DNA of 20,372 bases from an uncultured cyanobacterium (GTDB lineage Bacteria > Cyanobacteriota > Cyanobacteriia > PCC-6307 > Cyanobiaceae), in assembly GCA_963697335.1 (NCBI GenBank), contig CAVONQ010000015.1, forward strand, positions 1-20,372, read 5' to 3'. The notes beneath the pieces were generated by a model. The model saw only the letters and a list, made by a program, of their open reading frames with translations. It was not told the origin of the DNA and made no database searches. The number at the start of each line of letters is the position of its first letter. The first letter of the stretch is position 1. The position numbers and the translations under genes are program-made. This document shows, piece after piece, positions 1 through 12,935 of this stretch.

Positions 1-725
1 TGGTTACGTCCTTGTGGCCCAGCAATTCCTGGATCGTGCGGATGTCCTGGCCGCGCTCCAGCAGGTGGGTGGGAAACGAATGGCGGAAGGTGTGGCAGCT
101 GGCAGCCTTGGACACGCCAGCTGCAGCGACGGCCCGCTTCACGGCTTTCTGCACGATGCTTGGATCCAGATGGTGGCGCCCCTGGGTGCCTGAGGCCTGA
201 TCGTGCCAGCGATGCGGCATTGGGGTACTTCCTTGCCAGGGCATAGGGCATCAGCACCCGGCCCCAGCCAGCGGCCAGATCCGCCTGATGCAGTCCCCGC
301 ACGCCCAGCAGATGGTGCTGCAGCTCAGCCACCAGGCTCTGGGGGAGGAGGGTGAGTCGGTCTTTACCCCCTTTCCCATCCCGCACGGTCAGTTCCCGTC
401 GCTCAAAGTCCAGATCCTTCACGCGCAGCCGCAGGGCCTCCATCAGGCGCAGCCCGCTTCCTTAGTGCAGCCCCACCACCAGGGTCTGATTCTGGGTGGA
501 GGGGCTCACCTGCAGGTCCACCGCCAGGTGGGTGAGGAAGCTGTTCACCTCGGCGCTGCCCATCTCCCGGGGATGGCGCAGGTTGTGGAAACGAAGAAAC
601 CTTCTCAACCACAGTTCATAGGTCTTCACCGTCCGCCGCGCGTAGTGGCGGGTCTGCAATTCCTCCCGTTAGCGCTGGATCAGAGCCGCGGGCTTGGGTT
701 GCTCTGGCATGGGGGCCTGCGCCAT
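1..725 (-). pseudogene. intI: Integron integrase (IntI-type tyrosine recombinase) pseudogene, runs off the left edge
   Basis: Manual minus-strand translation from ATG 725: ...[91 protein letters not shown]...[10 protein letters not shown]...ALARKYPNA, then a frameshift near 215 into [16 protein letters not shown]...[35 protein letters not shown] stops at 669-671 and 462-464. The segment normally between STQNQ and GSGLR, and the WxWxFP patch, are missing. Confidence 0.93.
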
Positions 726-762
726 GGCGACGACTCAGAGTTGCCACGGCTGCCCAGGCATC

Positions 763-2061
763 TCAGCAATCCAGTGATGTGCGCCGCTCCGCGTCGCTGA
801 TGTCCCCCCGTTCGCGCTGCCACTGGCGGCGGCGCAGCTTGCCGTAGGCCTGGCAGAACTCCTCTCCGAGGGCCTGGCGCAGGCCGGTGTCGGCGTCGAA
901 GGCATCGAGGGCCTCGCCCAGATCGGCCGGCAGCCTTGGGCAGATCTCCGGTCCCAGCGGGCCGGCGTAGTTGTCGTTGTCGTGGCGGGGCCCCGGCTGC
1001 AGCTGGCGCTCGATGCCGTCCAGGCCCGCCGCCAGGATCGCCGCCTGCAGCAGGTAGGGATGGGTTGAGCCATCGGGCAGCCGCAGCTCCAGCCGCTGGT
1101 CGTCGGGGATGCGCAGCATGTGGGTGCGGTTGTTGCCGCTGTAGCTGATGCCCGCCGGGCTCCAGGTGGCACCTGATGTGGTGGGCGGTGCCGCCAGCCG
1201 CCGGTAGCTGTTCACCGTGGGGTTGGTGAGGGCGCACAGCGCTGGCGCGTGCTCCAGCAGGCCCGCCAGGAACTGATAGGCCAGCGCCGAGAGCCCCAGC
1301 TCACCGGCCGGATCGTGGAACAGGTTGGTGTCGCCCGCCCACAGCGAGAGATGGGTGTGGCAGCCGTTGCCGGTGCGCTCGGCGAAGGGCTTGGCCATGA
1401 AGCTGGCCTTGAGTCCCTGCTGCTCCGCCAGGGTCTTCACCATCACCTTGAAGAAGGCGTGGCGGTCGGCGGTGGTGAGGGCGTCGGCGAAGGTCCAGTT
1501 CACCTCGAACTGGCCGTTGGCGTCTTCATGGTCGGCCTGGTAAGGCCCCCAGCCCAGGCCCTCCATCGCCTCGAGCAGGGGCCCGATCAGCCCGTAGCGG
1601 CGCATCAGGGCCAGTTGGTCGTAGCAGGGTTTCTCCTGGTGGTCGGCGGCATCGGCGATGCCGGCGCCATCGGCCCCCAGCAGGAAGAACTCGGCCTCCA
1701 CGCCGCTGCGCAGCTCGTAGCCCAGGGCGCTGGCCCGCTCCAGCTGGATGCGCAGCAGGCGGCGGGGACACTGGGCCATGGGCGTGCCGGCCAGCACCAG
1801 CTCGGCCGCCACCCAGCCCACCTCCGGCTGCCAGGGCAGAGGGGTGAGGCTGGCGGGGTCGGGAATCGCCATCACGTCGCCATCGGCAGGGGAGAGATCC
1901 AGCCAGGCGGCGAAGCCGGCGAAGCCCGCCCCGTCCCGGGCCATGGCCGGGATCGCCGAGGCGGGCACGAGCTTGGCCCGCTGGATGCCGAACAGATCGG
2001 TGAAGGAGATCAGCAGGAACTTGAGCTGCAGCTCACGGGCCTGGCTGGCGAGGTCGGGCAT
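763..2061 (-). CDS. glnT: Glutamine synthetase-like ligase, GlnT/GmaS (gamma-glutamylmethylamide synthetase) type, about 432 aa
   Basis: Real start MPDLASQ at 2061 inside the 697-aa ORF. Motifs FTDLFG-QRAKLVP, GAGFAGFA, GVEAEFF, DHEDANGQFE, FMAKPF, GNGCH, NSYRRL, TTSGATWSP, NNRTHMLRIP, RLELR. Confidence 0.88.
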   Translation of the reverse strand: MPDLASQARELQLKFLLISFTDLFGIQRAKLVPASAIPAMARDGAGFAGFAAWLDLSPADGDVMAIPDPASLTPLPWQPEVGWVAAELVLAGTPMAQCPRRLLRIQLERASALGYELRSGVEAEFFLLGADGAGIADAADHQEKPCYDQLALMRRYGLIGPLLEAMEGLGWGPYQADHEDANGQFEVNWTFADALTTADRHAFFKVMVKTLAEQQGLKASFMAKPFAERTGNGCHTHLSLWAGDTNLFHDPAGELGLSALAYQFLAGLLEHAPALCALTNPTVNSYRRLAAPPTTSGATWSPAGISYSGNNRTHMLRIPDDQRLELRLPDGSTHPYLLQAAILAAGLDGIERQLQPGPRHDNDNYAGPLGPEICPRLPADLGEALDAFDADTGLRQALGEEFCQAYGKLRRRQWQRERGDISDAERRTSLDC

Positions 2062-2081
2062 GGGGAGGGAATCGGGGGAAC

Positions 2082-3083
2082 TCAGGAGGCCAGGAGGCCA
2101 TCCACGATGCGGCGCAGCTGCCGCTGCTCGGGAGCGCTGCTGTGGGGATTGCCCGCCCGGTGGCCGAGCAGGGAGTGGATCAGATGGAATGCGGCGCCCG
2201 GGATCCGCTCGGCGTCGTCCGCCATGTCCTGCGGGGTGAAGTAGAGGTCGTGGTCGGCGGCCACCACGGCCGTGCGCGCCTGGATGCCGGCGAGGCCGGC
2301 TCCGAGATCGCCGCCTGCGGCCACGTCGTGGGCCAGCCAGGTGTCGAGCATGGCGATCAGGTCGCGGGGATCGTGGCGGCGGTAGTGGGGCAGCCACTGC
2401 TCCTCCACGTGCTGCTCCACCGGCATGGCGAGGCTCCGGAAGAAGGGCTGGCTGGCGGCCCAGCTCGCGTAGATCAGGGCATAGGTGCGCAGCCCCTGCT
2501 CCGGTGGCGCGTCGAAGCCCGCGCCGTTCCAGTGGCGATCGGCCGTGAGGGCCTGGCGCAGGCTGAGCAGGAACAGGCGGTTGTGGGGCGAGGTGCGGGC
2601 CGTGCCGCACACACAGCAGATCCGCTGCACCCGTTCGGGGCACTGCACCGCCCACTGGTAGGCCTGCTGGGCCCCCATCGACCAGCCATGGATCAGGGCC
2701 GGCCGCTCCACGCCGAACACCTCCGCCAGCAGCCGCTGCTGGGCGGTCACGTTGTCGCGGTGGTGCACCACCCAGCCCTGTTCGGCCAGGCCCATGGCGC
2801 CATGGCTGGGGCTGGAGGAGGCGCCGTTGCCGAACATGCCGGCGATCACCACGCACCAGCGCTCCGGATCGAACACCGGCCCCGCCAGCCAGGCCAGATC
2901 CTCCACCCGGGCGCCGTAGGAGCTGGGCACCAGGATCAGGTTGGAGCGCTCCGGGTTGGCCCGCCCCAGGGCCACGTAGCTCAGGTGCGCCTCCGGGATC
3001 ACCTTCCCGCAGCTCAAGCGGAAGTCCCCCAGGGGCAAGCGCTGCTCGGTGGGGATGGGGGCCGCTGCGCTGGCGATGCTCAT
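2082..3083 (-). CDS. Alpha/beta hydrolase, homoserine O-acetyltransferase-like fold, about 333 aa
   Basis: Start MSIAS at 3083 overlaps the upstream stop (ATGA). N-terminal LGDFRLSCG..IPEAHLSY, GNGASSSPS, nucleophile elbow GWSMG, putative Asp (DHDLYF) and His (LGHRAG). Confidence 0.85.
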   Translation of the reverse strand: MSIASAAAPIPTEQRLPLGDFRLSCGKVIPEAHLSYVALGRANPERSNLILVPSSYGARVEDLAWLAGPVFDPERWCVVIAGMFGNGASSSPSHGAMGLAEQGWVVHHRDNVTAQQRLLAEVFGVERPALIHGWSMGAQQAYQWAVQCPERVQRICCVCGTARTSPHNRLFLLSLRQALTADRHWNGAGFDAPPEQGLRTYALIYASWAASQPFFRSLAMPVEQHVEEQWLPHYRRHDPRDLIAMLDTWLAHDVAAGGDLGAGLAGIQARTAVVAADHDLYFTPQDMADDAERIPGAAFHLIHSLLGHRAGNPHSSAPEQRQLRRIVDGLLAS

Positions 3084-3997
3084 GCCGGCAGGGCCAGGGC
3101 CTTGAGGTTGCCCAGCAGCTGGCGGTGCACGCTCAGGTAGCCCCGATCCAGATGCTGGAGCCGGGGCCCGATCCAGCCATGGGCCCGGGGCAGGGCGTGG
3201 AAGGGCAACGAGGGATAGAGGTGATGTTCGGCGTGGAACGGCATGTTCCACATCAACCAGCGCACCGGCGCGATGGTGAGGGTGGTGCGGGTGTTGGCGG
3301 TGCCGTCGGCGCCGAAGCTGCAGCCGCTGTGCTCGGCCAGGAGCATGAAGCGCAGGAAGGGCTGGCCTACCGCCAGGGGCAGCAGCCAGCTCCAGAGCAG
3401 GAAACCGTTGGCGTGGATGAAGGAGAGCACCAGCACCAGCCCGTACACCAGGACCTGCAGGCGCACCGAGCGGCGCACCTGGGGGATCACCTCGGGGCTG
3501 AGGTAGGGCAGGCCGCTCAGGTCTCCCCAGAGCAGGCGGCCATAGCCCTTCAGCTTGCCGATCCACCAGTTCCAGCCGCTGAGCTCGAGCAGATAGCCCC
3601 CGAGGCTGGTGGGCACGGGATCCTCCAGCTCCGGATCCAGGCCGGGCTGGTGGGTGAAGCGGTGGTGCCACTGGTGGTAGCGGCGGTAGAAGGTGGCGTT
3701 GTAGAAGCTCAGCACGCCGGCCCACCAGGCCACCGCGTCGTTCACCGCCCGGCTACGGAAGGCGGTGCGGTGGCAGCACTCATGCAGCGGCGCGAAGCAG
3801 GTGGCCAGGGCGATGCCGCTGATCACCAGTCCCGCCAGGCGCAGCGCTAGCGGCAGGCCGGGACTGCGCCAGATCAGCCCCGCCAGCCCGATCGTGAGCA
3901 GATGGCTGAGGAGCCGCACCACGGCAGCGGTGTTGCTGAGGGCATTGAGTTCGGCGAGGGCGGGGCGGTCGATCAGCCCGGTGCTGGAGGTGGTCAT
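3080..3997 (-). CDS. Membrane di-iron desaturase-superfamily oxygenase (MocD/rhizopine-oxygenase-like), about 305 aa
   Basis: Three His boxes HECCH, HQWHH, HAEHH; hydrophobic segments; HRTAF..R..ND, DPEL, AEH.GC, NTRT and WNMPFH motifs typical of the MocD-like subfamily. Start chosen at MTTSS. Confidence 0.85.
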   Translation of the reverse strand: MTTSSTGLIDRPALAELNALSNTAAVVRLLSHLLTIGLAGLIWRSPGLPLALRLAGLVISGIALATCFAPLHECCHRTAFRSRAVNDAVAWWAGVLSFYNATFYRRYHQWHHRFTHQPGLDPELEDPVPTSLGGYLLELSGWNWWIGKLKGYGRLLWGDLSGLPYLSPEVIPQVRRSVRLQVLVYGLVLVLSFIHANGFLLWSWLLPLAVGQPFLRFMLLAEHSGCSFGADGTANTRTTLTIAPVRWLMWNMPFHAEHHLYPSLPFHALPRAHGWIGPRLQHLDRGYLSVHRQLLGNLKALALPA

Positions 3998-4032
3998 GGA
4001 ACGAGTCCAGCAGTCCGACGGGCCGCCCTGCG

Positions 4033-4046
4033 GTAGGGGTTGAAAC
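4033..4046. promoter_or_regulatory. Candidate NtcA box (GTA-N8-AAC)
   Basis: GTAGGGGTTGAAAC, one mismatch from GTA-N8-TAC, in the divergent intergenic region. Minus-strand TGGACT (4009-4004) lies 23 nt downstream toward the desaturase-like gene. Confidence 0.45.
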
Positions 4047-4086
4047 CACGCCATGGCGGGGGGCTGTGACCATGCCTTGCCCTCCC

Positions 4087-4092
4087 TACAAT
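4087..4092 (+). promoter_or_regulatory. Candidate -10 element TACAAT for the small ORF/TIM-barrel unit
   Basis: TACAAT ends 13 nt before ATG 4106 in otherwise GC-rich DNA. Confidence 0.5.
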
Positions 4093-4105
4093 CGGGATGT
4101 CCAGA

Positions 4106-4321
4106 ATGAACACAATCCCCATGGTGTGCGCCGAACAGGTCGCGCTCGACGCCCGACCCGCCCAGGGCGATGGCGATCTGCGCCGTCAGGCGCTGGTGGA
4201 CTCCCTGCGCCATCGCTACGCCGAAGCCGTGAGCCGCGGCGATGCCGCCGCCAAGCAGGCACTCTTCCAGGAAGGCGTGTACCTGAACATTCCTCCCGAG
4301 CAGTTCGTGGGCGCCAACTGA
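4106..4321 (+). CDS. Small hypothetical helical protein, about 71 aa (start could be 4097 or 4121)
   Basis: GC3-rich codons, protein-like composition (RRQALVDSLRHRYAEAVSRGDAAAKQALFQEGVYLNIPP), fills an otherwise empty interval after a -10-like box. Confidence 0.7.
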   Translation: MNTIPMVCAEQVALDARPAQGDGDLRRQALVDSLRHRYAEAVSRGDAAAKQALFQEGVYLNIPPEQFVGAN

Positions 4322-4356
4322 GCAGGCTCCACCCCCGCGTCCAGCCTTCGACTCCC

Positions 4357-5205
4357 GTGCTGCTCCACAGCCTCTGGGGGTTTGATGGCGACCTGCCGCA
4401 GGCCATCAAGCAGGCCTCCAGCGGGGGCTTTCACGGGCTTGAGGCCAACCTCCGCCACCCCGCCCTGGCGGGTCTGGAGCCCCCGGCCGTGGCCGAGGCC
4501 CTGGCCGCCGCGGCCATGCCCCTGGTGCTCGAGCTGGTCACCGGGGGCGACTACGTGCCCCGGCTCGAGCTGGGGCCGGAACACCACCTTCGGGAGCTGG
4601 AATACCTGCTGGCGTCGTGCCCGGCCTACGCCCCACTCAAGGTGACGGTGATCACGGGCTCCGATGCCTGGAGCTGGGCTGAGCAGCAGGAGTTCTGGAG
4701 CCGGGCCATCCCCCTGGCCGAGGCCTCCGGGCAGGCGGTGAGTTTCGAAACCCATCGCTCCCGCAGCCTCCACAGCCCCTGGATGATCCAGGCCTTTCTC
4801 GAGGCCTTTCCCGGCCTGCGGCTCACGGCGGACCTGAGCCACTGGTGCGTGGTGGCTGAGCGGCTCATGACCCCCGAGCTGGCTCCCGTGGCGGCCATGG
4901 CCGCCCGCGTGGACCATATCCACGCCCGGGTGGGCCATCCCCAGGGCCCCTCGGTGGGCCATCCCTTCGCGTCGGAGTGGGCCGAGGCCCTGGAGGCCCA
5001 TCGCCGCTGCTGGCGGCTGTTCCGCCTCAGCCGCACCGGCGCCGCCCTGCCGTTCACGCTCACGCCCGAATTCGGGCCCGACGGCTACCTGCCCGAGCGG
5101 CCCTTCAGCCGTGAGCCGGTGGCCGATCTGTTGGAGATCAACACGGCCATGGCCCGCTGGATCCGCTCCGGTGCCCTCGATGCCGACGTCATCGTTCAGG
5201 CGTGA
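4357..5205 (+). CDS. Xylose isomerase-like TIM-barrel protein (sugar phosphate isomerase/epimerase family), about 282 aa
   Basis: SLWG near the N-terminus, GFHGLE, FETHR, LTADLSHW, HIHARVG, TPEFGP..Y metal-site-type motifs. GTG start at 4357 is inferred. Confidence 0.8.
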   Translation: MLLHSLWGFDGDLPQAIKQASSGGFHGLEANLRHPALAGLEPPAVAEALAAAAMPLVLELVTGGDYVPRLELGPEHHLRELEYLLASCPAYAPLKVTVITGSDAWSWAEQQEFWSRAIPLAEASGQAVSFETHRSRSLHSPWMIQAFLEAFPGLRLTADLSHWCVVAERLMTPELAPVAAMAARVDHIHARVGHPQGPSVGHPFASEWAEALEAHRRCWRLFRLSRTGAALPFTLTPEFGPDGYLPERPFSREPVADLLEINTAMARWIRSGALDADVIVQA

Positions 5206-5211
5206 GGCCCA

Positions 5212-6240
5212 TCACCGCAGGCCCATCACCTCGGCGTAGAGGCGCTGGTGCTGCAGCAGGCGCTGCTCCAGCCGGTGCGGCGGCCCCGGCGCCAGGCCGC
5301 TGCGGTAGCCCCGCTGGGCTGACTCCACCAGGCGGCGATCCTCCTCCAGGAACAGCAGCATGCTCTCCAGCCACTCGGCGGCCAGCGGGGCGTGTTCGGC
5401 CCTGCCCAGCAGCCACAGCTGCATGGCGCAGCGCTCGAGCGATAGGGGCGGGAAGCTGATCACCGCCAGCCGGCCATCGGGCCACACCAGCACATGGGTC
5501 CAGGGGGCGAGCCCGAAGGTGAGGAATTCGCCTCCCTCCATCGGGGTGGCCAGCAGGGAGCCGTGGCGGCTGAGGGCATGGCGGTAGTGCCGCACCGGCC
5601 CCTGCTCCCGGTGCAGCGTGCGCGGATGGGCGATGGCCACGTGGTAGTCGTCGAGGGTGTTGTCGTGGGCGATCTTCCAGTTGCAGGCCAGTTCGCGGAT
5701 GGTGTGGCCCAGCAGCTGCAGAGGCCGGGCCCAGGCTTCCCCCGCCTCCTGCAGCACCAGATCCAGCTGCTGCTCCAGGGGCAGGGGATCGGCGCCGATC
5801 GCCACCCAGATCAGCGGCCCGCTCACGCGGCAGGCCAGAGGTTGGAGCGGCCAGTCGGCGCGGCAGAAGGGCTCGAGGAACTCCCCTTCCCGGGCCGCCG
5901 CCCGCAGCTGGCCATCGAGGCTGTAGGTCCAGCCGTGGTACGGGCACACCAGCCGCCGGACGGCTCGGGCCTGGCCGCCCGGCTCCTGCAGGGCCACGCC
6001 GCGGTGGGGGCAGCGGTTGAGGAAGGCCCTCACCCCTTCACCGGGGGCATGGCTGAGCAGCACCGGCAGGTCCAGCAGTTCCAGCGCCAGGCTGTGGCCC
6101 TCAGGCAGGGCCGCCAGCGGCGCCACCACATGCCAGAAGCTGGGGGCGTAGCGCTCCCGCTCCCGCCGGGCGGTGGCGGCACACGCGTAGGCCTCGGACG
6201 GCAGGAAGCGGGCCGCGGCCTCGGCCGGGCTGGGGTTCAT
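5212..6240 (-). CDS. Rieske non-heme iron oxygenase alpha subunit (choline monooxygenase/GbcA-like), about 342 aa
   Basis: Rieske ligands NRCPHRG...CPYHGW; mononuclear Fe site NWK..HDN..DDYH.AIAH and EEDRRLVESAQRG. ATG 6240 overlaps the ATPase stop (ATGA). Confidence 0.9.
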   Translation of the reverse strand: MNPSPAEAAARFLPSEAYACAATARRERERYAPSFWHVVAPLAALPEGHSLALELLDLPVLLSHAPGEGVRAFLNRCPHRGVALQEPGGQARAVRRLVCPYHGWTYSLDGQLRAAAREGEFLEPFCRADWPLQPLACRVSGPLIWVAIGADPLPLEQQLDLVLQEAGEAWARPLQLLGHTIRELACNWKIAHDNTLDDYHVAIAHPRTLHREQGPVRHYRHALSRHGSLLATPMEGGEFLTFGLAPWTHVLVWPDGRLAVISFPPLSLERCAMQLWLLGRAEHAPLAAEWLESMLLFLEEDRRLVESAQRGYRSGLAPGPPHRLEQRLLQHQRLYAEVMGLR

Positions 6241-7007
6241 GCCGCCAGGGCCGGTTCGAGGCTGCGCAGGCACTGGGCCAGCTCCTCGCGCAGGGTGAGG
6301 AATTCGGGAGACACCCGCAAGTGCCCCATGTTGGTGTGGTCCAGATCCACATGGACGCTGCGCACGATCCGCCCCGGCCGTGGCGCCATGATGTGCACCC
6401 GCTGCGCCAGCAGCAGCGCTTCCTCCAGATCGTGGGTGATCAGCAGCGCCGAGAGGCCGGTGCGGTGCCAGAGCTTATGCAGGAACTCCTGCATCGACTC
6501 GCGGATCTGGAGATCGAGGGCGCCGAAGGGCTCATCCAGCAGCAGCACCTTGGGCTGGGCGGCCAGGGCCCGGGCGATCGCCACCCGCTGCTGCATGCCG
6601 CCGGAGAGCTCCCGTGGCAGCCGCCGGGCGGCATCGCCCAGACCCACCACATCGAGGAAGTAGCTGGTGCGCTCGCGGATCTCCCGCTTGGCCAGCCCCT
6701 GCAGTTCCATGCCGAAGGCCACGTTCTGGGCGGCCGTGAGCCAGGGGTAGAGGCTGTACTTCTGGAACACCATGCCCCGATCGGAGCCGGGGCCGCGCAC
6801 CACCTGCCCATCCACCGTGATCACCCCGGAGGTGGGGCGCTCCAGGCCGGCCACCAGGCGCATCACCGTGGATTTACCGGAACCTGAGCTGCCCACCAGG
6901 GCCACGAATTCGCCGGTGTTCACCTCGAAACTGATGCCATCGAGCACGCACTTGGCGGCGCGGCCCACCCCGAAGGTCTTGGACACATTGTCAACGCTGA
7001 GATGCAT
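6237..7007 (-). CDS. ABC transporter ATP-binding protein, NitT/TauT family (guanidine importer-like)
   Basis: Walker A GSSGSGKS, signature LSGGMQQR, Walker B LLLDEPFGALD, H-loop ITHD. Confidence 0.95.
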   Translation of the reverse strand: MHLSVDNVSKTFGVGRAAKCVLDGISFEVNTGEFVALVGSSGSGKSTVMRLVAGLERPTSGVITVDGQVVRGPGSDRGMVFQKYSLYPWLTAAQNVAFGMELQGLAKREIRERTSYFLDVVGLGDAARRLPRELSGGMQQRVAIARALAAQPKVLLLDEPFGALDLQIRESMQEFLHKLWHRTGLSALLITHDLEEALLLAQRVHIMAPRPGRIVRSVHVDLDHTNMGHLRVSPEFLTLREELAQCLRSLEPALAA

Positions 7008-7019
7008 GGCAGGAATTGT

Positions 7020-7847
7020 TCAGTTGGCCCAGCGGCAGGTGCGCCGCATCAGCAGGCGGAAGCCCAGATCGATCAGCAGGCCGATCAGCCCGATCACGAT
7101 CAACCCGAGGAAGATCTCATCGGTGCGCAGGAAGCGCTGGGCCAGGCTGATCCGCTTGCCCAGGCCTTCATTGGCCGCCACCAGCTCGGCCACGATCACC
7201 AGGTTCCAGGCGGAGGCCATGTTGATGCGGTAGGCATCGATCACCTGGGGAGCGATGCAGGGAGTGATCACGCGCACCAGCACCTGGGAGGTGCGGCCGC
7301 CGAGGGTGAGGGCCGTTTCCACCAGTTCGTTCGGAACGAACTTCACGGCATCCATGATCATCAACGTGTTGAAGAACAGGGTGCCGATGAAGATCAGCAG
7401 GATCTTCGGCAGTTCGCCCAGCCCGAAGTAGATGATCAGCAGCGGGATGAACGCCGGAGCCGGCATGTAGCGGATCAGGGCCATCAGGGGCTCCAGCAGT
7501 CGGCAGATCACCGTGCTGCTGCCCATGGCGATCCCCAGGGGAAGAGCCACCACGGCCGAGAGCGCGAAGCCGGCGAACACCCGGCCCACGCTGGCAACGA
7601 GGTCTGCCCAGAGCACGCCCTGGGCTAACTGGCTCTGCCCAGCGGCAATCACCCCGCCCGGACTCGGCAGGAACAGCGGATCCACCACCCCGGCGCTGCT
7701 GACGACGGTCCAGATCACCACCACGGTGAGAATCCCCGCCAGCCCCAGCACCCAAGGGTGCTGACCCAGGCGCTTCAGCTGTTCCATCGTTGGTGTTGCA
7801 GTGGGAGGGGCATCGGCCGGTGGGGCGTTGCTGGTGGGGACAGTCAT
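7020..7847 (-). CDS. ABC transporter permease, NitT/TauT family
   Basis: Multiple transmembrane helices, LPSP, RYMPAPAFIPL, EAA-like ELVETALTLGG, LVIVAELVAA..GLG. Confidence 0.93.
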   Translation of the reverse strand: MTVPTSNAPPADAPPTATPTMEQLKRLGQHPWVLGLAGILTVVVIWTVVSSAGVVDPLFLPSPGGVIAAGQSQLAQGVLWADLVASVGRVFAGFALSAVVALPLGIAMGSSTVICRLLEPLMALIRYMPAPAFIPLLIIYFGLGELPKILLIFIGTLFFNTLMIMDAVKFVPNELVETALTLGGRTSQVLVRVITPCIAPQVIDAYRINMASAWNLVIVAELVAANEGLGKRISLAQRFLRTDEIFLGLIVIGLIGLLIDLGFRLLMRRTCRWAN

Positions 7848-7867
7848 GACGGTGGGTGTGCCTCAGC

Positions 7868-8911
7868 TCACTTCGCCGCTTTGACGAAGGTGTCCACGAA
7901 CAACCCATCGAGCTTTGGAGGGGTCTTGGCCAGGCCCACGTTCTGCAGGAAGGCACTGATCTCCTCGGCGGCAAAGGGCAGCGAGGCCATGGTGGTGCCG
8001 GGCTCCAGCGCCTTGAGGTTGTCCTCAAGCGTGAAGATCGTGGTGCCGGCGTTGTACTCGGTGTACTCCTCTTCGCTGACACCGGCCCGCTGGCTCATGA
8101 TTGCCAGGGTGGGGCCTGGATTGGCCTTGATCTCGCCCAGGGTGGCGAACCAGGCATCCACCAGTTGCTGCACCTTCTCGGGATTCTTGGCCACGAATTC
8201 CGTGCGGCACACCAGGTGGTCGCTGATGGCGCCGGGGAACTCCTTGGAGGAGAACAGGGTGGTGCTGCCGGGCCGCTTCAGGGCCTGGGTGGTGAAGGGA
8301 GCGAACACGCCCACCGCATCCACCTGGCCGGCCACGAAGGCCGCCGCCGCCGCCCCGGTCTCGAGCGGAACGAAGGTGATGTCGTCGGCGCTCAGACCCG
8401 CCTGTTTGAGGCCCAGCAGCAGCAGGTAGTGGTCCACCGTGCCCTCTTCGGCGGCCACCTTTTTACCCTTGAGATCGGCGATGCTGGTGATGCCTTCGGC
8501 GGCAATGATCTGGTCATTGCCCGTGGAGTTGTCGTTGGTGAGCACCACCTGCAGCTCGGCGCCACCGGCGATCGAGCTGATCGTGTCGTTGAGGGTCTGG
8601 CTGTTGCAGTCCAGCTGGCCGGCGTTGAGGGCGTTGATCGAATCGAGGTAGCCGTCGAACCACTGCAGGGTCACAGGAATGCCGAACAGGCCCTTCTCCT
8701 CAGTGACCTTCCAGGGAATCCAGCCCGGCCAGGCGCTGTAACCCACACGCACCGGTGCATCGGAGCCGCTGCCACCCTGCTGGCCGCAGGCCGAGAGGGC
8801 GCCGGCGCCCAGGCCGAGCAGCAGCAGCGTGGCCAGCAGGCGCTGCCGCAGACGGGGCTTGCGCGGTGGGGTTGCCGGCGTGGCGAGGGGCGTGGTGTGG
8901 GGTTGGGTCAT
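7868..8911 (-). CDS. ABC transporter substrate-binding lipoprotein (NitT/TauT family; probable guanidine-binding protein), about 347 aa
   Basis: Basic/hydrophobic signal with lipobox LSAC; GYSAWPGWIPW, WFDGYLDS, NDNSTGND, DLKGKKVA. Ligand inferred from gdmH context. Confidence 0.9.
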   Translation of the reverse strand: MTQPHTTPLATPATPPRKPRLRQRLLATLLLLGLGAGALSACGQQGGSGSDAPVRVGYSAWPGWIPWKVTEEKGLFGIPVTLQWFDGYLDSINALNAGQLDCNSQTLNDTISSIAGGAELQVVLTNDNSTGNDQIIAAEGITSIADLKGKKVAAEEGTVDHYLLLLGLKQAGLSADDITFVPLETGAAAAAFVAGQVDAVGVFAPFTTQALKRPGSTTLFSSKEFPGAISDHLVCRTEFVAKNPEKVQQLVDAWFATLGEIKANPGPTLAIMSQRAGVSEEEYTEYNAGTTIFTLEDNLKALEPGTTMASLPFAAEEISAFLQNVGLAKTPPKLDGLFVDTFVKAAK

Positions 8912-9033
8912 AACAAGGTTGTTGATGGGAAACGGTGCGACTGCAGACAGGACAACGTGGGAAAGGGCAACGGGCCGGGACTGCCGGCCGGTACTCAGGG
9001 GGGAATGCAGCGGCGGAGGGGGCGGGCCATGGT

Positions 9034-10401
9034 TCAGAACAGCTCCAGGTAGCGCTCGGTTTCCCAGCTGGAGATGGCGCTGTGGTAGCTGGCCCACTCC
9101 TCTCGCTTGAAGCTGATGAAGGCTTCGGCCATGGCGTCGCCGAACACCTCCCGGCCAAGGGGATCGGCGGCGAAGGCCTCGATCGCTTCGCCGAGGGTGC
9201 GGGGCAGGGCGTGCAGGCCGCGCGCGGCCCGCTCCTCGGCGCTGAGCCGATACGCATTCACCAGGTTGGGTTCACCGGGATCCAGCCCGTCGCGGATGCC
9301 CTCCAGGCCTGCGGCCAGCAACAGGGCGGCGGCCAGGTAGGGGTTGCAGGAGCTGTCGGCGGCGCGGCACTCCACCCGACTGCCGGCACCGGGAATGCGC
9401 AGCATGTTGGTGCGGTTGTTGTTGCCGTAGCAGATGAACACCGGCGCCCAGGTGAACCCGCTCATGCTTCCCTGCACCACCAGCCGCTTGTAGCTGTTCA
9501 CCGTGGGGGCGATCACGGCGCAGAGCGCCGCGGCGTGGCGCAGGATGCCGGCGATGAACTGTCGGCCCAACGGGCTCACCCAGCTGCCGGCGCCATCCGG
9601 CGGCGTGAACAGGTTGCTGCCGCTCTCCAGATCGGCGAGTGACATGTTGAAGTGGGCGCCGCTGCCGGTGCGATCGGCGAACGGCTTCGGCATGAAGCTG
9701 GCGATCAGGCCGTGCTTGCGGGTGATCTCCCGTGCCATCAGGCGCAGGAAGGTGACCCGGTCCGCCGTGACCAGGGCATCGGCGTAGCCGAAATCAGTTT
9801 CGAACTGGCCGTTGCCGTCCTCGTGGTCGAACGAGTACACGCCCCAGCCGAGCCCGTTCATGGCCTGCACCAACTCATCGAGCCAGTCGAGGTTGTCGAG
9901 CAGCCCGCGCAGGTCGTAGCAGGGTTTTTCGAGGCTGTCGGCGCTGCTGGCGGGGCCAAGGGAACCGTCGGCTCCGCGCCGCAGCACGAAGAATTCGGTC
10001 TCCACGCCCAGGTCGAAGCGCAGTCCCATGCGGGCCGCCTGCTCGCGCACGCGGCTGAGGATGCCGCGGCTGCAGGCCTCGAACGGCTGGCCATGCAGAT
10101 GGAGGGTGCTGGCCATCCACACCGTGTCGGGCCGCCATGGCAACACCGTGGCCGAGGTCGGATCCGGCAGGGCGGCCACCTCGTCGTCGCTCACGTCCTG
10201 GGGCACGCCATCGAGGGCGGCTCCGGTGAACAGTTCGGAGCCGGCCAGCATCGCCGGCAGGTGGGCGATGGGCACCGCCTTGGCCTTGCACACCCCATGC
10301 AGATCCACGAAGCTGGCCAGGGCGTAGCGCACCCCACGGGCCTCGAGCTCGGCCTGGGTGTGCAGGGCGCCTGGGCCCGCCATCACAGCGGTGCTGCTCA
10401 T
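9034..10401 (-). CDS. glnT: Second glutamine synthetase-like ligase, GlnT type, 455 aa
   Basis: [65 protein letters not shown]. Start overlaps the hypB-like stop (ATGA at 10398-10401). Confidence 0.88.
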
Positions 10402-11132
10402 CGAGCCACGAGTACGGCAGGAGCGGTGGCGGCCTCGGTGCTGGCCGCCGTGCCGCTGGCCGTGGCGGCGCGCTGATCCCGCAGCCAGGCATGCCAGGCC
10501 TCCAGGCCCTCGCCGCTGGTGGCCGACACCCGGATCACGGCGCAGCGGGGGTTCACCTGGCGGATGTGGGCTTCAATCCGCTCGACATCCACAGGCAGAT
10601 AGGGCAGCAGATCGGTCTTGGTGATCAGCACGCAGTCGGCCTCCCGGAACATCACCGGGTACTTGAGCGGCTTGTCCTCCCCTTCGGTGACGCTGAGCAG
10701 GGCCACCTTGCGGTGTTCGCCCACCGCGAACTCCGCCGGACACACCAGATTGCCCACGTTCTCCACCCAGAGGATGTCGAGGCCGGCCGGATCCAGCCGC
10801 TGACGCAGCAGCTTCAGGCCACCGGCCACCATGGCGGCATCCAGATGGCAGGCACGGCCGGTGGTGATCGGCACCACCGGTACCCCCACCGCCTCCAGCC
10901 GCTCGGCATCGAGCTGGGTGGTCATGTCGCCCTCCAGCACCGCCATGGCGTAGGTGTCGGCCAGCTGGGCCAGGGAGCGCTCCAGCAGGGAGGTCTTGCC
11001 GGCACCGGGGCTGCTCATCACGTTCAGGCAGAGCAGCTGCCAGGCGTCGAAGTGCTCTCGGTTGTGGGCGGCCTGATGGTCATTGGCGGCCAGCAGGTTG
11101 AGGCCGAGGCTGTCTTCCAGGGGCATGTGCAT
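10398..11132 (-). CDS. hypB: HypB/UreG-type Ni-insertion GTPase (guanidine hydrolase accessory, GhaB)
   Basis: [44 protein letters not shown]. Confidence 0.93.
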
Positions 11133-11137
11133 GGCGA

Positions 11138-11527
11138 TCAGCTGCAGGGGGCGAGGTGGGACGAGGAATGGCTAGAGAGGCTGTAATCAATCGAGCGGAT
11201 CTTCAGCTCACGGCCCTGCACGATCTCCTCCATCGGGTGCAGGCAGCAGGGGGAGCGGTAGCCCTGCTCGGCCCTGGGTGAGTAGGTGCCGTTGCACAGC
11301 ACACAACGGCCCAGCAGGGGCACCGATTCGATCGCCAGCCGGGCACCGGCCAGCCAGCTGGATTGCACGGCCACCTGCCAGGTGGTCACGAGTTGCTCGG
11401 GCTCCACGCAGGTGAAGGTGCCCACCAGCAGGTGCACGGTGGAGACCTTCGGTGTGGCTGGGGCGTGGCGCTGCTTCCACTCCTCCATCGAGAGCAGCAG
11501 GCAGCGGGTCATGTCAACTTCATGCAT
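11138..11527 (-). CDS. hypA: HypA-type Ni metallochaperone (guanidine hydrolase accessory, GhaA)
   Basis: N-terminal MHE, CVLC and SPCC Cys motifs, C-terminal [14 protein letters not shown] Shine-Dalgarno in the end of gdmH. Confidence 0.92.
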
Positions 11528-11530
11528 GCC

Positions 11531-12733
11531 TCACCTCCACTTCTGATCGACCTGCATGTTGCAGGCCTCCTGCAGCCAGGCCGGCTTCTCTTTGCGGGGC
11601 AGCTGGCCGCTCACCACCAGGTGGGCCATGGTGTCGCAGATCACCCGGGTGGCCATCAGGGAGGTCATGTCACTGATGTCGTAGGGGGGCGACACCTCCA
11701 CCACCTCCAGGCCGCAGACCGGCACGTTGCGCACGATCAGCTCCAGCAGCTTGAGCGCTTCGCGCGGCAGCAGGCCGCCCGGTTCGGGCCAGCCGGTGCC
11801 GGGCACGAAACCGGCGTCGATGCAGTCGATGTCGAAGGAGATGTAGACGCAGTCGGTGCCATCGGTGGCGCGCTCGATCGCGTACTGGGCGGCCGCCTCC
11901 AGGCCCATGTCGCAGATATCGGTGACGGTGAGCACGTTGGTGCCCCGCTCGCGGCACACCTTCACCCCTTCGCGCGGCACCTGCCAGCCGCCGATGCCCA
12001 GTTGCACCAGGTTTTCGGCGGGGGCATTGGCCATGTTCGTGGCGTGGAACCACGGGCAGGTGTGCATGCGCTCGTCGAGGTCGATCTCCTGGGTGTCGAC
12101 ATGGCGATCGAAGTGGATGATGCCCACCTTCTTGTCGCCCAGGTGGCGGCACACTCCCCGCACGGTGGGAAAGCCGATCGAGTGATCGCCGCCGAGGATG
12201 ATCGGGAAGGCGCCGCTGGCGAACACATGCGCCACGCCCTTGGAGATCTGATCGAAGCTCTTCTCGTTGTTGGCGGGAATCGTGAAGATGTCGCCCACGT
12301 CGCAGAGCCGGATCGACTCCCGCAGGTCAACGCCCATCTCGTAGTTGTAGGGCGTGTAGAGGGCCGAGATGCGGCGGATGCCCTGGGGGCCGAAGCGGGT
12401 GCCGGGCCGGTAGGTGGTGCCGGAATCGTGGGGTACCCCCAGGATCGCCACATCGAATTCGCCGACGCGATTCACATCTTCGATGTAGGGCGCCTTCATG
12501 AAGGTGTTGATGCCCGCGTAGTGGGGCAGCTCGCCACGCGAAAAGGTGGAGATGCGCCGATCGACGATGCTCTCAGCCGCCTCCAGCCCGTAGCGCAGGC
12601 CCTGGTCCACCTCCTGCTGCCAGCCGGTGAGGGGCAGGCGGGCTTCTTTCTCCAAGGCTTCGGCGCCCTGGCGGCCAGTGGCCGCTGTGGTGCGGCGGTC
12701 AAAGGCCCCTTCAGGGCCTGGCGATGCGGTCAT
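11531..12733 (-). CDS. gdmH: Ni-dependent guanidine hydrolase (ureohydrolase family, Synechocystis Sll1077-like), 400 aa
   Basis: LPLTGWQQEVDQGL, FSRGELPHYAGINTF, GGDHS, HFDRHVDT, MHTCPWF, SFDIDCID, GTGWPEPGG closely match GdmH as I recall it; riboswitch upstream and hypA/hypB downstream. Confidence 0.95.
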   Translation of the reverse strand: MTASPGPEGAFDRRTTAATGRQGAEALEKEARLPLTGWQQEVDQGLRYGLEAAESIVDRRISTFSRGELPHYAGINTFMKAPYIEDVNRVGEFDVAILGVPHDSGTTYRPGTRFGPQGIRRISALYTPYNYEMGVDLRESIRLCDVGDIFTIPANNEKSFDQISKGVAHVFASGAFPIILGGDHSIGFPTVRGVCRHLGDKKVGIIHFDRHVDTQEIDLDERMHTCPWFHATNMANAPAENLVQLGIGGWQVPREGVKVCRERGTNVLTVTDICDMGLEAAAQYAIERATDGTDCVYISFDIDCIDAGFVPGTGWPEPGGLLPREALKLLELIVRNVPVCGLEVVEVSPPYDISDMTSLMATRVICDTMAHLVVSGQLPRKEKPAWLQEACNMQVDQKWR

Positions 12734-12761
12734 GGCACAGCACGGAGGTGGGGGTTGCGGT

Positions 12762-12879
12762 CTCCCGGGCTTTTATCCCTCCGTGCAACCGGGTGACCCC
12801 GGTGAGCTTCTCTCGGACCAGACGTCTCGCCGGTGGGGCCCTGGGGCCATACCTGGACGGGACCGGAACCCTAGAAGCT
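12762..12879 (-). ncRNA. Guanidine-I riboswitch (ykkC-yxkD motif)
   Basis: Minus strand: AGCUUCUAGGGUUCCG...UGGUCCGAGAGAAGCU (P1 arms 12879-12873 and 12811-12805), CCGGGGUCACCCGG (P2), then CACGGAGGGAUAAAAGCCCGGGAG, the conserved 3' element. Confidence 0.95.
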
Positions 12880-12893
12880 GCTTCCGCCATCAG

Positions 12894-12935
12894 ACCCTCT
12901 CCCAGCTGACGGCGGCGCGTTGTGGTGGTTGTTAC
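12894..12935 (-). promoter_or_regulatory. Candidate NtcA-activated class II promoter
   Basis: Minus strand GTA-ACAACCAC-CAC (12935-12922), 22-nt spacer, then GAGGGT (12899-12894) as a degenerate -10; the implied start site falls just before the riboswitch. Confidence 0.6.

Follow-up and report, generated by a model that had tools for sequence, protein, structure and literature searches.

The window analysed here, the whole of a 20.4-kb contig (C15, 20,372 nucleotides) from an uncultured cyanobacterium, carries a guanidine operon together with two genes related to glutamine synthetase (GS), a Rieske oxygenase gene and a gene for a desaturase-family enzyme. Gene identities and order, catalytic residues and patterns of co-occurrence were observed, and from these the region is read as three separable functional modules with a single gene bridging them, and not as one pathway. 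One module is the guanidine core that is already known: riboswitch, gdmH, ghaA/ghaB and gimABC. Another is the Rieske gene, which belongs with the guanidine importer and hydrolase and not with the ligases. The third, FAD-ABH-GmaS (the triad), is a mobile unit independent of guanidine. The bridging gene is GS1, which encodes a GmaS-like ligase. The genome (2.58 Mb, 98.8% complete, ~70% G+C) has as its relatives Synechococcus/Cyanobium-type picocyanobacteria from freshwater and brackish habitats; it is labelled G000 below, where G and L numbers denote genomes and loci. The window's features are listed below, all on the minus strand unless marked plus.

12760..12885, minus: Guanidine-I riboswitch aptamer (Rfam RF00442, 82.7 bits; gathering score 63; full model, 1-107)
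11531..12733, minus: gdmH, Ni-dependent guanidine hydrolase of the arginase family (Pfam Arginase, 261 bits)
11138..11527, minus: ghaA, hypA-like nickel chaperone (Pfam HypA, 80.8 bits)
10398..11132, minus: ghaB, hypB-like nickel GTPase (TIGR00073, 281 bits; cut-off 121)
9034..10401, minus: GS1, GmaS-like gamma-glutamyl ligase of a distinct subfamily (TIGR03105, 566 bits)
7868..8911, minus: gimA-like substrate-binding lipoprotein, NMT1/SsuA family (Pfam NMT1; TIGR01728, 212 bits)
7020..7847, minus: gimB-like ABC permease (Pfam BPD_transp_1)
6237..7007, minus: gimC-like ABC ATPase (Pfam ABC_tran)
5212..6240, minus: Rieske non-haem-iron monooxygenase, alpha-only, CntA/Stc2-like (Pfam Rieske and Ring_hydroxyl_A)
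~4354..5205, plus: xylose-isomerase-like TIM-barrel open reading frame (ORF), start uncertain (Pfam AP_endonuc_2, 26 bits; cut-off 31, not reached)
4097..4321, plus: conserved 74-aa ORF (conservation by tblastn; no match in Pfam or NCBIfam)
3080..3997, minus: "FAD", desaturase-family membrane di-iron enzyme (not flavin), first gene of the triad (Pfam FA_desaturase, 126 bits)
2082..3083, minus: ABH, MetX/PRK07581-like alpha/beta hydrolase (NF005757, 319 bits; cut-off 332)
763..2061, minus: GS2, GmaS orthologue, third gene of the triad (TIGR03105, 595 bits; 551 bits to PDB 7cql)

The separation of the modules was apparent in a survey in which four window proteins were searched against 301 genomes, G000 among them, of the family to which the window belongs. 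A GmaS-like gene of any kind was counted at E <= 1e-70 and a GS1 orthologue at 72% identity or more; the survey genomes are related to each other, and the counts are descriptive, not tests. Relatives of gdmH, 80-99% identical, were present in 123/301 genomes, a GmaS-like gene in 119, FAD in 118, the Rieske gene in 85 and GS1 orthologues in 71. All but one of the 85 Rieske-positive genomes had gdmH, the exception being 75% complete, and in these 84 the two genes lay within 12 kb of each other (77), on different contigs (6) or far apart (1). GS1 was accompanied by gdmH in 70/71 genomes, in 68 of them within 6 kb, and by FAD in 71/71. A GmaS-like gene was found in each of the 118 FAD-positive genomes. 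FAD and gdmH occurred together in 95 genomes, lying within 15 kb in 47, on one contig but 36-750 kb apart in 11, and on different contigs in 37; a further 28 genomes had gdmH without FAD. By gene content, the 123 gdmH genomes were distributed as follows.

GS1 present, Rieske present, FAD present: 61
GS1 present, Rieske absent, FAD present: 9
GS1 absent, Rieske present, FAD present: 7
GS1 absent, Rieske present, FAD absent: 16
GS1 absent, Rieske absent, FAD present: 18
GS1 absent, Rieske absent, FAD absent: 12

A sequence-only reading of the window had joined these genes into one expanded guanidine cluster in which the Rieske oxygenase was paired with a ligase. Neither claim is supported. Of the 118 FAD genomes, 23 have the triad but no gdmH, and in the 11 noted above the two are 36-750 kb apart; the triad is also found on a plasmid and, with no gdmH nearby, in 8 cyanobacterial genomes outside the family. 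As for the Rieske gene, 16 of the 85 genomes that carry it have no GmaS-like gene of any kind, and among gdmH genomes it varies independently of GS1.

Guanidine core and Rieske oxygenase

The 3′ end of the Guanidine-I riboswitch, which occurs as a single copy in the genome, lies 26 nt ahead of the gdmH start codon. GdmH matched the solved Synechocystis enzyme (PDB 7esr/7oi1) with 772 bits over residues 20-400, and this close full-length similarity, with hypA and hypB directly downstream, assigns it to the GdmH family. The gimABC genes were assigned from the NMT1/SsuA family and their position beside gdmH, and the gha names follow PMC12704784. There, riboswitch-gdmH-ghaAB-gimABC is described as a guanidine assimilation system; Synechocystis gimABC is driven by its own promoter, and GimA binds guanidine at 97 nM, with W59, W62, F205, D135 and D233 as the guanidinium-binding residues (PMC12704784). 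Compared with the locus of Synechocystis sp. PCC 6803 (sll1077-sll1082), the window has the same riboswitch, gdmH, both nickel chaperones and NitT/TauT-type importer in the same order, but with GS1 inserted between ghaB and gimA and the Rieske oxygenase following gimC. Urease genes are present elsewhere in the genome.

The added genes are closely joined to the core. The ATG of GS1 overlaps the TGA of hypB/ghaB as ATGA, which suggests translational coupling; because of this overlap and its place downstream of the riboswitch, GS1 is probably under riboswitch control. The gimA start, read from the sequence together with a signal peptide of lipoprotein type, lies 122 nt past the GS1 stop. The Rieske gene begins in an ATGA overlap with the stop of gimC. 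Coordinates and profile matches thus confirmed the gene content and ATGA overlaps that had been claimed for the riboswitch-gdmH-hypA-hypB-ABC core, the GS-like gene and the Rieske gene.

The Rieske protein has 342 residues and no reductase partner gene nearby. Its ligands C77, H79, C99, H102, H200, H205 and D301 are invariant in 24/24 aligned relatives and comprise the CXH...CXXH cluster ligands and 2-His-1-carboxylate iron site of an alpha subunit. An AlphaFold model (predicted local distance difference test score, pLDDT, 92.5) gave its best fold matches to CntA (template-modelling score, TM, 0.82-0.84) and the stachydrine demethylase Stc2 (TM 0.83). Sequence searches also ranked CntA and Stc2 best, and the best NCBIfam match was GbcA. 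With the group V enzymes CntA (carnitine monooxygenase), Stc2 and GbcA/BmoA it shares the alpha-only architecture, the conserved ligands and the position of the bridging carboxylate. It differs from them in being shorter, at an identity of only 20-25%, and in its genomic partners, which are a guanidine importer and hydrolase and not quaternary-amine genes. It also has Thr195 where CntA has the pi-cation residue Tyr203, and so lacks the aromatic residue of group Va (CntA-type); the demethylating subgroup Vb is likewise described without an aromatic residue at this position (PMC7948474). Enzymes of the CntA/Stc2 type hydroxylate a carbon beside a cationic nitrogen, leading to C-N cleavage or N-demethylation (PMC7948474).

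In Prochlorococcus single-cell genomes, a Rieske gene (~35% identity) closes the gdmH-hypAB-ABC cluster, and no ligase gene is present. In Prochlorococcus and marine Synechococcus genomes devoid of GmaS-like genes, too, the Rieske gene stands after gimC. Its association with the guanidine operon has already been published without a function: Dore et al. 2023 (PMC10119275) noted it as specific to Synechococcus/Cyanobium relative to Synechocystis, offering iron as a cofactor and no more.

The nearest functional parallel is the guanidine-riboswitch operon of Vreelandella boliviensis, in which MgdH, a dioxygenase, and the lyase MgdL demethylate methylguanidine to guanidine (PMC12508155). In both systems an oxygenase gene lies inside a guanidine-riboswitch operon with an ABC importer, and the shared logic proposed here would be conversion of a substituted guanidine to guanidine and formaldehyde. 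MgdH is, as described in PMC12508155, a 2-oxoglutarate/Fe(II) dioxygenase with a dedicated lyase and feeds a guanidine carboxylase pathway. In contrast, the window's oxygenase belongs to the Rieske monooxygenases, lacks a recognisable lyase partner, is not homologous to MgdH, and would feed GdmH.

FAD-ABH-GS2 triad and the two ligases

The sequence-only reading had counted two gamma-glutamyl ligases in the window. GS2 bears this out as a genuine GmaS, and GS1 departs from the standard enzyme in its amine pocket. GS2 aligned end to end with Rhodovulum GmaS 7cql at 551 bits. In that enzyme, Asp177, Glu186 and Arg312 are catalytic, Lys30′, Tyr147, Gln175, Glu179 and Asn188 form the pocket, Trp300 replaces the flap Glu of GS and Ala48′ replaces Asp50′ of GS (PMC7948447). 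Ten of the 11 named positions are kept in GS2 and in 24/24 sequences of its clade; Arg312 was located in GS2 only, and the column tabulated for the clade is the ATP-binding Arg317, kept in 24/24. By these residues, GS2 is a true GmaS orthologue. The GS2 clade was separate in a phylogenetic tree (support 0.94). Neither ligase has the Asp50′ and flap Glu of an ammonium-using type I GS, these being replaced by Thr or Ala and by Trp, and true GlnA and GlnN genes occur elsewhere in the genome.

GS1 matched PDB 9qur, 'Glutamate--methylamine ligase', with 377 bits, a second GmaS structure with 338 bits and any glutamine synthetase with 271 bits or less. It keeps the catalytic Asp and Glu, Arg317 and Trp300. 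Its pocket, however, differs from that of GmaS in Gln175 to Ser, Asn188 to Asp, Trp189 to Phe and Ala48 to Thr, and is more acidic. Because its amine pocket is changed, GS1 was classed as a GmaS-like subfamily and not as GmaS. The signature T48/S175/D188/F189 was found in 9/9 cyanobacterial and 3/3 alphaproteobacterial GS1-type sequences. Among the alphaproteobacterial relatives, that of L119 stands beside a creatininase-family gene and next to a canonical gmaS-mgs cluster, and that of L120 between an arginase-family gene and a Rieske gene. No guanidine riboswitch was found in the non-cyanobacterial ligase loci scanned (L025, L118, L119 and L120). A plasmid search with GS1 gave matches of 45% identity or less, annotated glnT, and no GS1-type genes. 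A GS gene beside gdmH in Synechococcus WH8020 has been read as a sign of nitrogen assimilation (PMC12704784).

FAD scored 126 bits against PF00487 (cut-off 29.7), and both the window protein and its G022 orthologue show the His boxes HX3H, HX2HH and HX2HH. A faint match to the arginine hydroxylase GntB (NF041365; window 45 bits, L138 62 bits) fell below the cut-off of 380 and serves as a lead only. A sequence search of the PDB gave no match to FAD, the Protein Atlas returned 'fatty acid desaturase' clusters only, and a wide protein search returned only close picocyanobacterial relatives, under the same name. FAD and GS2 matches in some genomes carried internal-stop flags and so resembled broken genes; in the case inspected, the G022 FAD, the flag was the natural stop at the end of the alignment, and the other cases were assumed to be alike.

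ABH had been described as an alpha/beta hydrolase, a fold class that stands and is here refined to MetX/PRK07581-like. The window protein, scanned as an over-long ORF, scored 319 bits against NF005757 (cut-off 332), and the relatives in L118 and L138 scored 456 and 496 bits. A GWSMG nucleophile elbow is visible in the translation. The best PDB matches, 5e4y (164 bits) and 5d6o (142 bits), bear the title 'homoserine O-acetyltransferase'; we take both to be esterases of the MetX-like subfamily.

The start of ABH overlaps the stop of FAD as ATGA. Two plus-strand ORFs, convergent on the Rieske gene, separate the guanidine operon from FAD-ABH-GS2; because they lie on the opposite strand between the two units, the triad is read as a transcription unit of its own. 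The di-iron oxygenase, hydrolase and GS-like gene of the "next unit" in the sequence-only reading are thus present, with two intervening ORFs that it had left out. FAD, ABH and GS2 were colinear in 20/20 family loci that hold FAD (L003, L004, L006, L019, L020 and L100-L114). In the complete genomes of L103-L105 and L114 the triad lies far from gdmH, and in L106-L109 it occurs in genomes without gdmH, in three of these beside fumC. In the window genome, the gdmH operon occupies that fumC-adjacent spot.

The triad also occurs outside the family. On a 78.5-kb plasmid of Leptolyngbya sp. BL0902 (NZ_CP046158.1; L116, 7000-10377), FAD, ABH and GS2 relatives with 51%, 50% and 59% identity form a cassette between replication and partition genes, the GmaS gene being annotated glnT. 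This plasmid cassette suggests that the triad moves as a unit. A Nostoc plasmid carries an ABH-GmaS pair. A sample of 381 genomes from across the phylum contained 28 non-family genomes with a match to FAD, and the context was read for all of them. The 24 with 41-57% identity comprised 8 with the triad, 6 with FAD-ABH only, 1 with FAD-GS2 only and 9 with FAD alone. gdmH was found within ~7 kb of FAD in 0/28 of the non-family genomes.

Two loci place the triad genes beside other nitrogen genes. In L138 (G498:C1:3671000-3687000), a gene for trimethylamine monooxygenase (tmm; 770 bits, cut-off 675), a tdm-like gene for a DUF1989-GcvT protein, a 176-aa ORF, FAD, ABH and GmaS follow one another at ~3486-11277. 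The DUF1989-GcvT protein resembles trimethylamine N-oxide demethylase (786 bits, below the cut-off of 1100) and is ~150 residues shorter than the model. The triad stands here where dimethylamine monooxygenase and the enzymes of the N-methylglutamate pathway are normally expected. In L123 (G376:C1:1358000-1374000), GmaS is divergent from FAD-ABH and directly adjoins urease structural and accessory genes.

In methylotrophs and marine Roseobacters, GmaS serves the N-methylglutamate pathway (gmaS-mgsABC-mgdABCD). GS2 is a full-length orthologue with all residues kept, but in the window genome no mgs or mgd gene was found, and gmaS stands third in an operon, behind the genes for the desaturase-family di-iron enzyme and the MetX-like hydrolase. 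The markers used were a stand-alone GXGXG domain (MgsB) and SoxD (MgdD), both of which were recovered from an alphaproteobacterial positive control (G302). With these markers, mgs/mgd were not found in 5/5 triad-bearing cyanobacterial genomes (G000, G077, G106, G498 and G494); in all five, GXGXG occurred only inside a glutamate synthase (GOGAT) frame of 1,550-1,660 aa, and SoxD was absent. The sequence-only reading had reported mgs/mgd as absent from the window; they were not found in the rest of the 98.8%-complete genome either. The window's own genome encodes a glutathione-dependent formaldehyde dehydrogenase (694 bits) and an S-formylglutathione hydrolase (398 bits). A search of open-access papers and preprints found nothing relevant on the triad, on the GS1 subfamily or on an alternative fate of gamma-glutamylmethylamide in cyanobacteria.

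Neighbouring reading frames and candidate control sites

The plus-strand TIM-barrel ORF has relatives of 57-66% identity at the same place in L003, L004, L007, L019 and L020; in L002 the relative lies upstream of gdmH. This accessory gene is variable and is missing from other genomes, e.g. G106. A relative of the 74-aa ORF (43-70% identity, tblastn) was found in 14/14 freshwater-type loci with the 3′ end of the gdmH/gim operon, and the ORF keeps to this end even in L101 and L113, which have the triad on the opposite side. It was not found by tblastn in 8 loci that hold the triad alone. Pfam and NCBIfam gave no match to it, and the Protein Atlas gave 'hypothetical protein' clusters only.

At the contig end, positions 3-443 of the minus strand encode a fragment that resembles integron integrases over model positions 133-209 only (TIGR02249, E 3e-25). 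A 170-aa ORF without family match (288-800, plus strand) overlaps this fragment, and a copy with 48% identity follows GS2 in G106. The cluster may occupy a variable spot of the genome.

No exact NtcA site, GTA-N8-TAC, occurs in the window. Boxes with one mismatch numbered 11 against 8.2 expected, which is not above chance, and they are leads only. Two of these boxes are well placed. One, at 12922-12935 (GTA-N8-CAC, minus strand), has its centre ~42 nt upstream of the riboswitch 5′ end, a distance that agrees with the one given for the gdmH promoter of Synechocystis (PMC12704784). The other, at 4033-4046, lies between FAD and the 74-aa ORF, ~58 nt upstream of the start codon of the latter. A promoter and terminator scan of the window was uninformative at ~70% G+C.

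Proposed scheme and its alternatives

A scheme of four parts, A to D, would accommodate these genes. In module A, the known core under riboswitch control, GimABC imports guanidine and GdmH converts it to urea and ammonium by hydrolysis. In module B, the Rieske enzyme would hydroxylate the carbon next to the guanidinium nitrogen of an imported substituted guanidine, methylguanidine being the simplest candidate and a guanidino acid another. The product would decay to an aldehyde and free guanidine, which would feed GdmH, so that the enzyme would be a non-homologous counterpart of MgdH/MgdL. That the Rieske enzyme acts on a guanidino substrate is close to evenly balanced, if anything a little short of that, and the reaction itself is conjectural.

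In module C, GS2 would make gamma-glutamylmethylamide from methylamine, glutamate and ATP. The membrane di-iron enzyme FAD would then hydroxylate the N-methyl group, and the MetX-like ABH would speed breakdown of the carbinolamide or hydrolyse an N-formyl product. The products would be glutamine and a one-carbon (C1) unit, which the glutathione-dependent formaldehyde enzymes could clear. Module C would in this way stand in for MgsABC and MgdABCD. Homology gives strong support to the GmaS reaction, and the FAD and ABH steps are predicted. A methylamine route that bypasses N-methylglutamate is a fair reading, because GS2 is read as GmaS, the triad forms an operon, tmm and a tdm-like gene adjoin it in L138, and mgs/mgd were not found. 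We consider it somewhat probable that module C handles methylated amines. Gamma-glutamylation followed by oxidative dealkylation, as the sequence-only reading had it, is plausible chemistry where the triad is concerned and unsupported in the case of the Rieske enzyme.

Part D concerns GS1, which may trap an amine from the guanidine branch, e.g. an alkylamine freed by hydrolysis of a substituted guanidine, and hand its product to module C; this would need FAD and ABH. The scheme as a whole, A to D as written, is put forward tentatively.

The substrates and reactions given for the Rieske enzyme, FAD, ABH and GS1 are all inferred, and several observations weigh against the scheme. The co-occurrence counts overstate the evidence, because related genomes are non-independent samples. 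CntA, Stc2 and GbcA are known to act on quaternary ammonium carboxylates, not on guanidines. N-(hydroxymethyl)guanidine is reported to be stable and to require a lyase (PMC12508155), and no MgdL-like lyase partner is evident with the Rieske gene. GimA of Synechocystis binds guanidine itself with high affinity (PMC12704784). Adjacency of triad and operon may in part reflect a shared insertion site, because triad-only genomes have the triad beside fumC. In 9 of the 24 other cyanobacterial genomes, FAD orthologues (41-52% identity) are accompanied by neither ABH nor GmaS, and at least two of these lone genes adjoin a fused hydroxylase/short-chain dehydrogenase (SDR) gene, so that the substrate of the FAD family may be a lipid. 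ABH relatives occur in unrelated nitrogen-catabolic contexts, e.g. beside a carbamoylase gene in Deinococcus. The window's own genome, G000, has neither tmm nor tdm. Finally, GS1-like or other GS-family ligases adjoin Rieske genes in non-cyanobacterial loci (L025 and L120 in Alphaproteobacteria, L026, and L118 in Leisingera), and these neighbourhoods favour ligase-oxygenase pairing there.

The same neighbourhoods speak for a single pathway, in which GdmH or a side activity would free alkylamines, GS1 and GS2 would gamma-glutamylate them, and the Rieske and di-iron enzymes would both dealkylate the products to glutamine and an aldehyde; in genomes without a GmaS-like gene, ordinary GlnA would make the gamma-glutamylmethylamide. 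L026 has in addition a gene for a glutathione-dependent formaldehyde-activating enzyme, and L118 an ABH relative. On this Leisingera thetidis plasmid (NZ_CP109788.1, L118, 509-7996), genes for a Rieske protein, gloA, a cupin, a GS-family ligase, a NitT/TauT-type ABC transporter and a PRK07581 hydrolase (456 bits) form a cluster; the window's gene families thus recur there without gdmH and with no ureohydrolase gene. The ligase, oxygenase and hydrolase logic is also that of known amine catabolism by gamma-glutamylation. Isopropylamine is degraded by IpuC, a P450 and a hydrolase, and putrescine by the Puu gamma-glutamyl pathway. For aniline and 1-naphthylamine, degraded by a GS-like ligase and a Rieske dioxygenase, gamma-glutamylation followed by an oxygenase is established (PMC11335346). 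Among the window ORFs scanned, however, there was neither an amidotransferase-like nor a dioxygenase beta subunit, nor a reductase or P450, so that the gene set is not that of an aniline dioxygenase of the AtdA1-A5/TdnQ type. GS1, the Rieske gene and the triad do occur together in 61/123 gdmH genomes; yet 23 Rieske-positive gdmH genomes have no GS1, 16 of them no GmaS-like gene at all, and 9 GS1-bearing gdmH genomes have no Rieske gene. The Rieske gene overlaps the importer ATPase gene and not a ligase gene, and the nitrogen of a gamma-glutamylamide is not cationic, unlike that in the substrates of the closest characterised Rieske relatives (PMC7948474). We regard a single pathway as unlikely.

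Other roles for the triad would still begin with ligation. The amine that GS2 and GS1 join to glutamate could be ethylamine, ethanolamine, a polyamine or one of hydroxylamine type, or the triad could build a metabolite such as a gamma-glutamyl amide, with hydroxylation by FAD and hydrolysis or acylation by ABH after the ligation step, in the manner of the gamma-glutamyl pathways for isopropylamine or putrescine. Rhodovulum GmaS does take ethylamine, propylamine, hydroxylamine and dimethylamine (PMC7948447), ABH belongs to a family akin to acyltransferases as well as esterases, FAD faintly matches the amino-acid hydroxylase GntB, and the GS1 pocket is changed. All methylamine-pocket residues are nevertheless kept in 24/24 GS2 sequences, the triad adjoins tmm and a tdm-like gene in one genome, and no biosynthetic genes stand beside it in the loci read, which makes such a role quite unlikely. 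More improbable again is that the arrangement is mostly coincidence, GS1 and GS2 being spare synthetases that take up ammonium set free from guanidine or urea, and FAD and ABH lipid or ester enzymes in a variable island beside fumC. The fumC-adjacent triads without gdmH, the integrase-like fragment at the contig end and the lone FAD orthologues would fit this, as would the reading of the WH8020 gene as no more than a mark of nitrogen assimilation (PMC12704784). Against it, GS1 and GS2 are without the Asp50′ and Glu-flap residues needed for ammonium, GlnA and GlnN are already in the genome, FAD and ABH share an ATGA overlap in a triad that is found as a unit on a plasmid, and all 118 FAD-positive genomes have a GmaS-like gene.

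The modular scheme, if extended to its widest form, would mean that many cyanobacteria, ~40% of the sampled family species and scattered Leptolyngbya-, Nostoc- and other lineages, use an undescribed, O2-dependent methylated-amine route that dispenses with N-methylglutamate, together with a Rieske (methyl/alkyl)guanidine dealkylase and GS1 as a linking ligase. This joint claim, in both content and scope, is doubtful.

Freshwater and coastal picocyanobacteria are major primary producers, and methylamines and guanidines are a sparsely charted part of the dissolved organic nitrogen pool. At present gmaS serves as a marker for heterotrophic methylamine users. If the triad acts as proposed, gmaS would mark phototrophs as well, and these would take the nitrogen only, by chemistry unlike that of the N-methylglutamate pathway. 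The Rieske enzyme, should it dealkylate substituted guanidines, would represent another and independent way to carry out the MgdH/MgdL reaction, and this role would explain the gene that has been noted, with no function assigned, beside the marine guanidinase cluster. In the widest form of the scheme, the guanidine operon would have gained two further new activities, a Rieske dealkylase unrelated to MgdH and the GS1 ligase subfamily.

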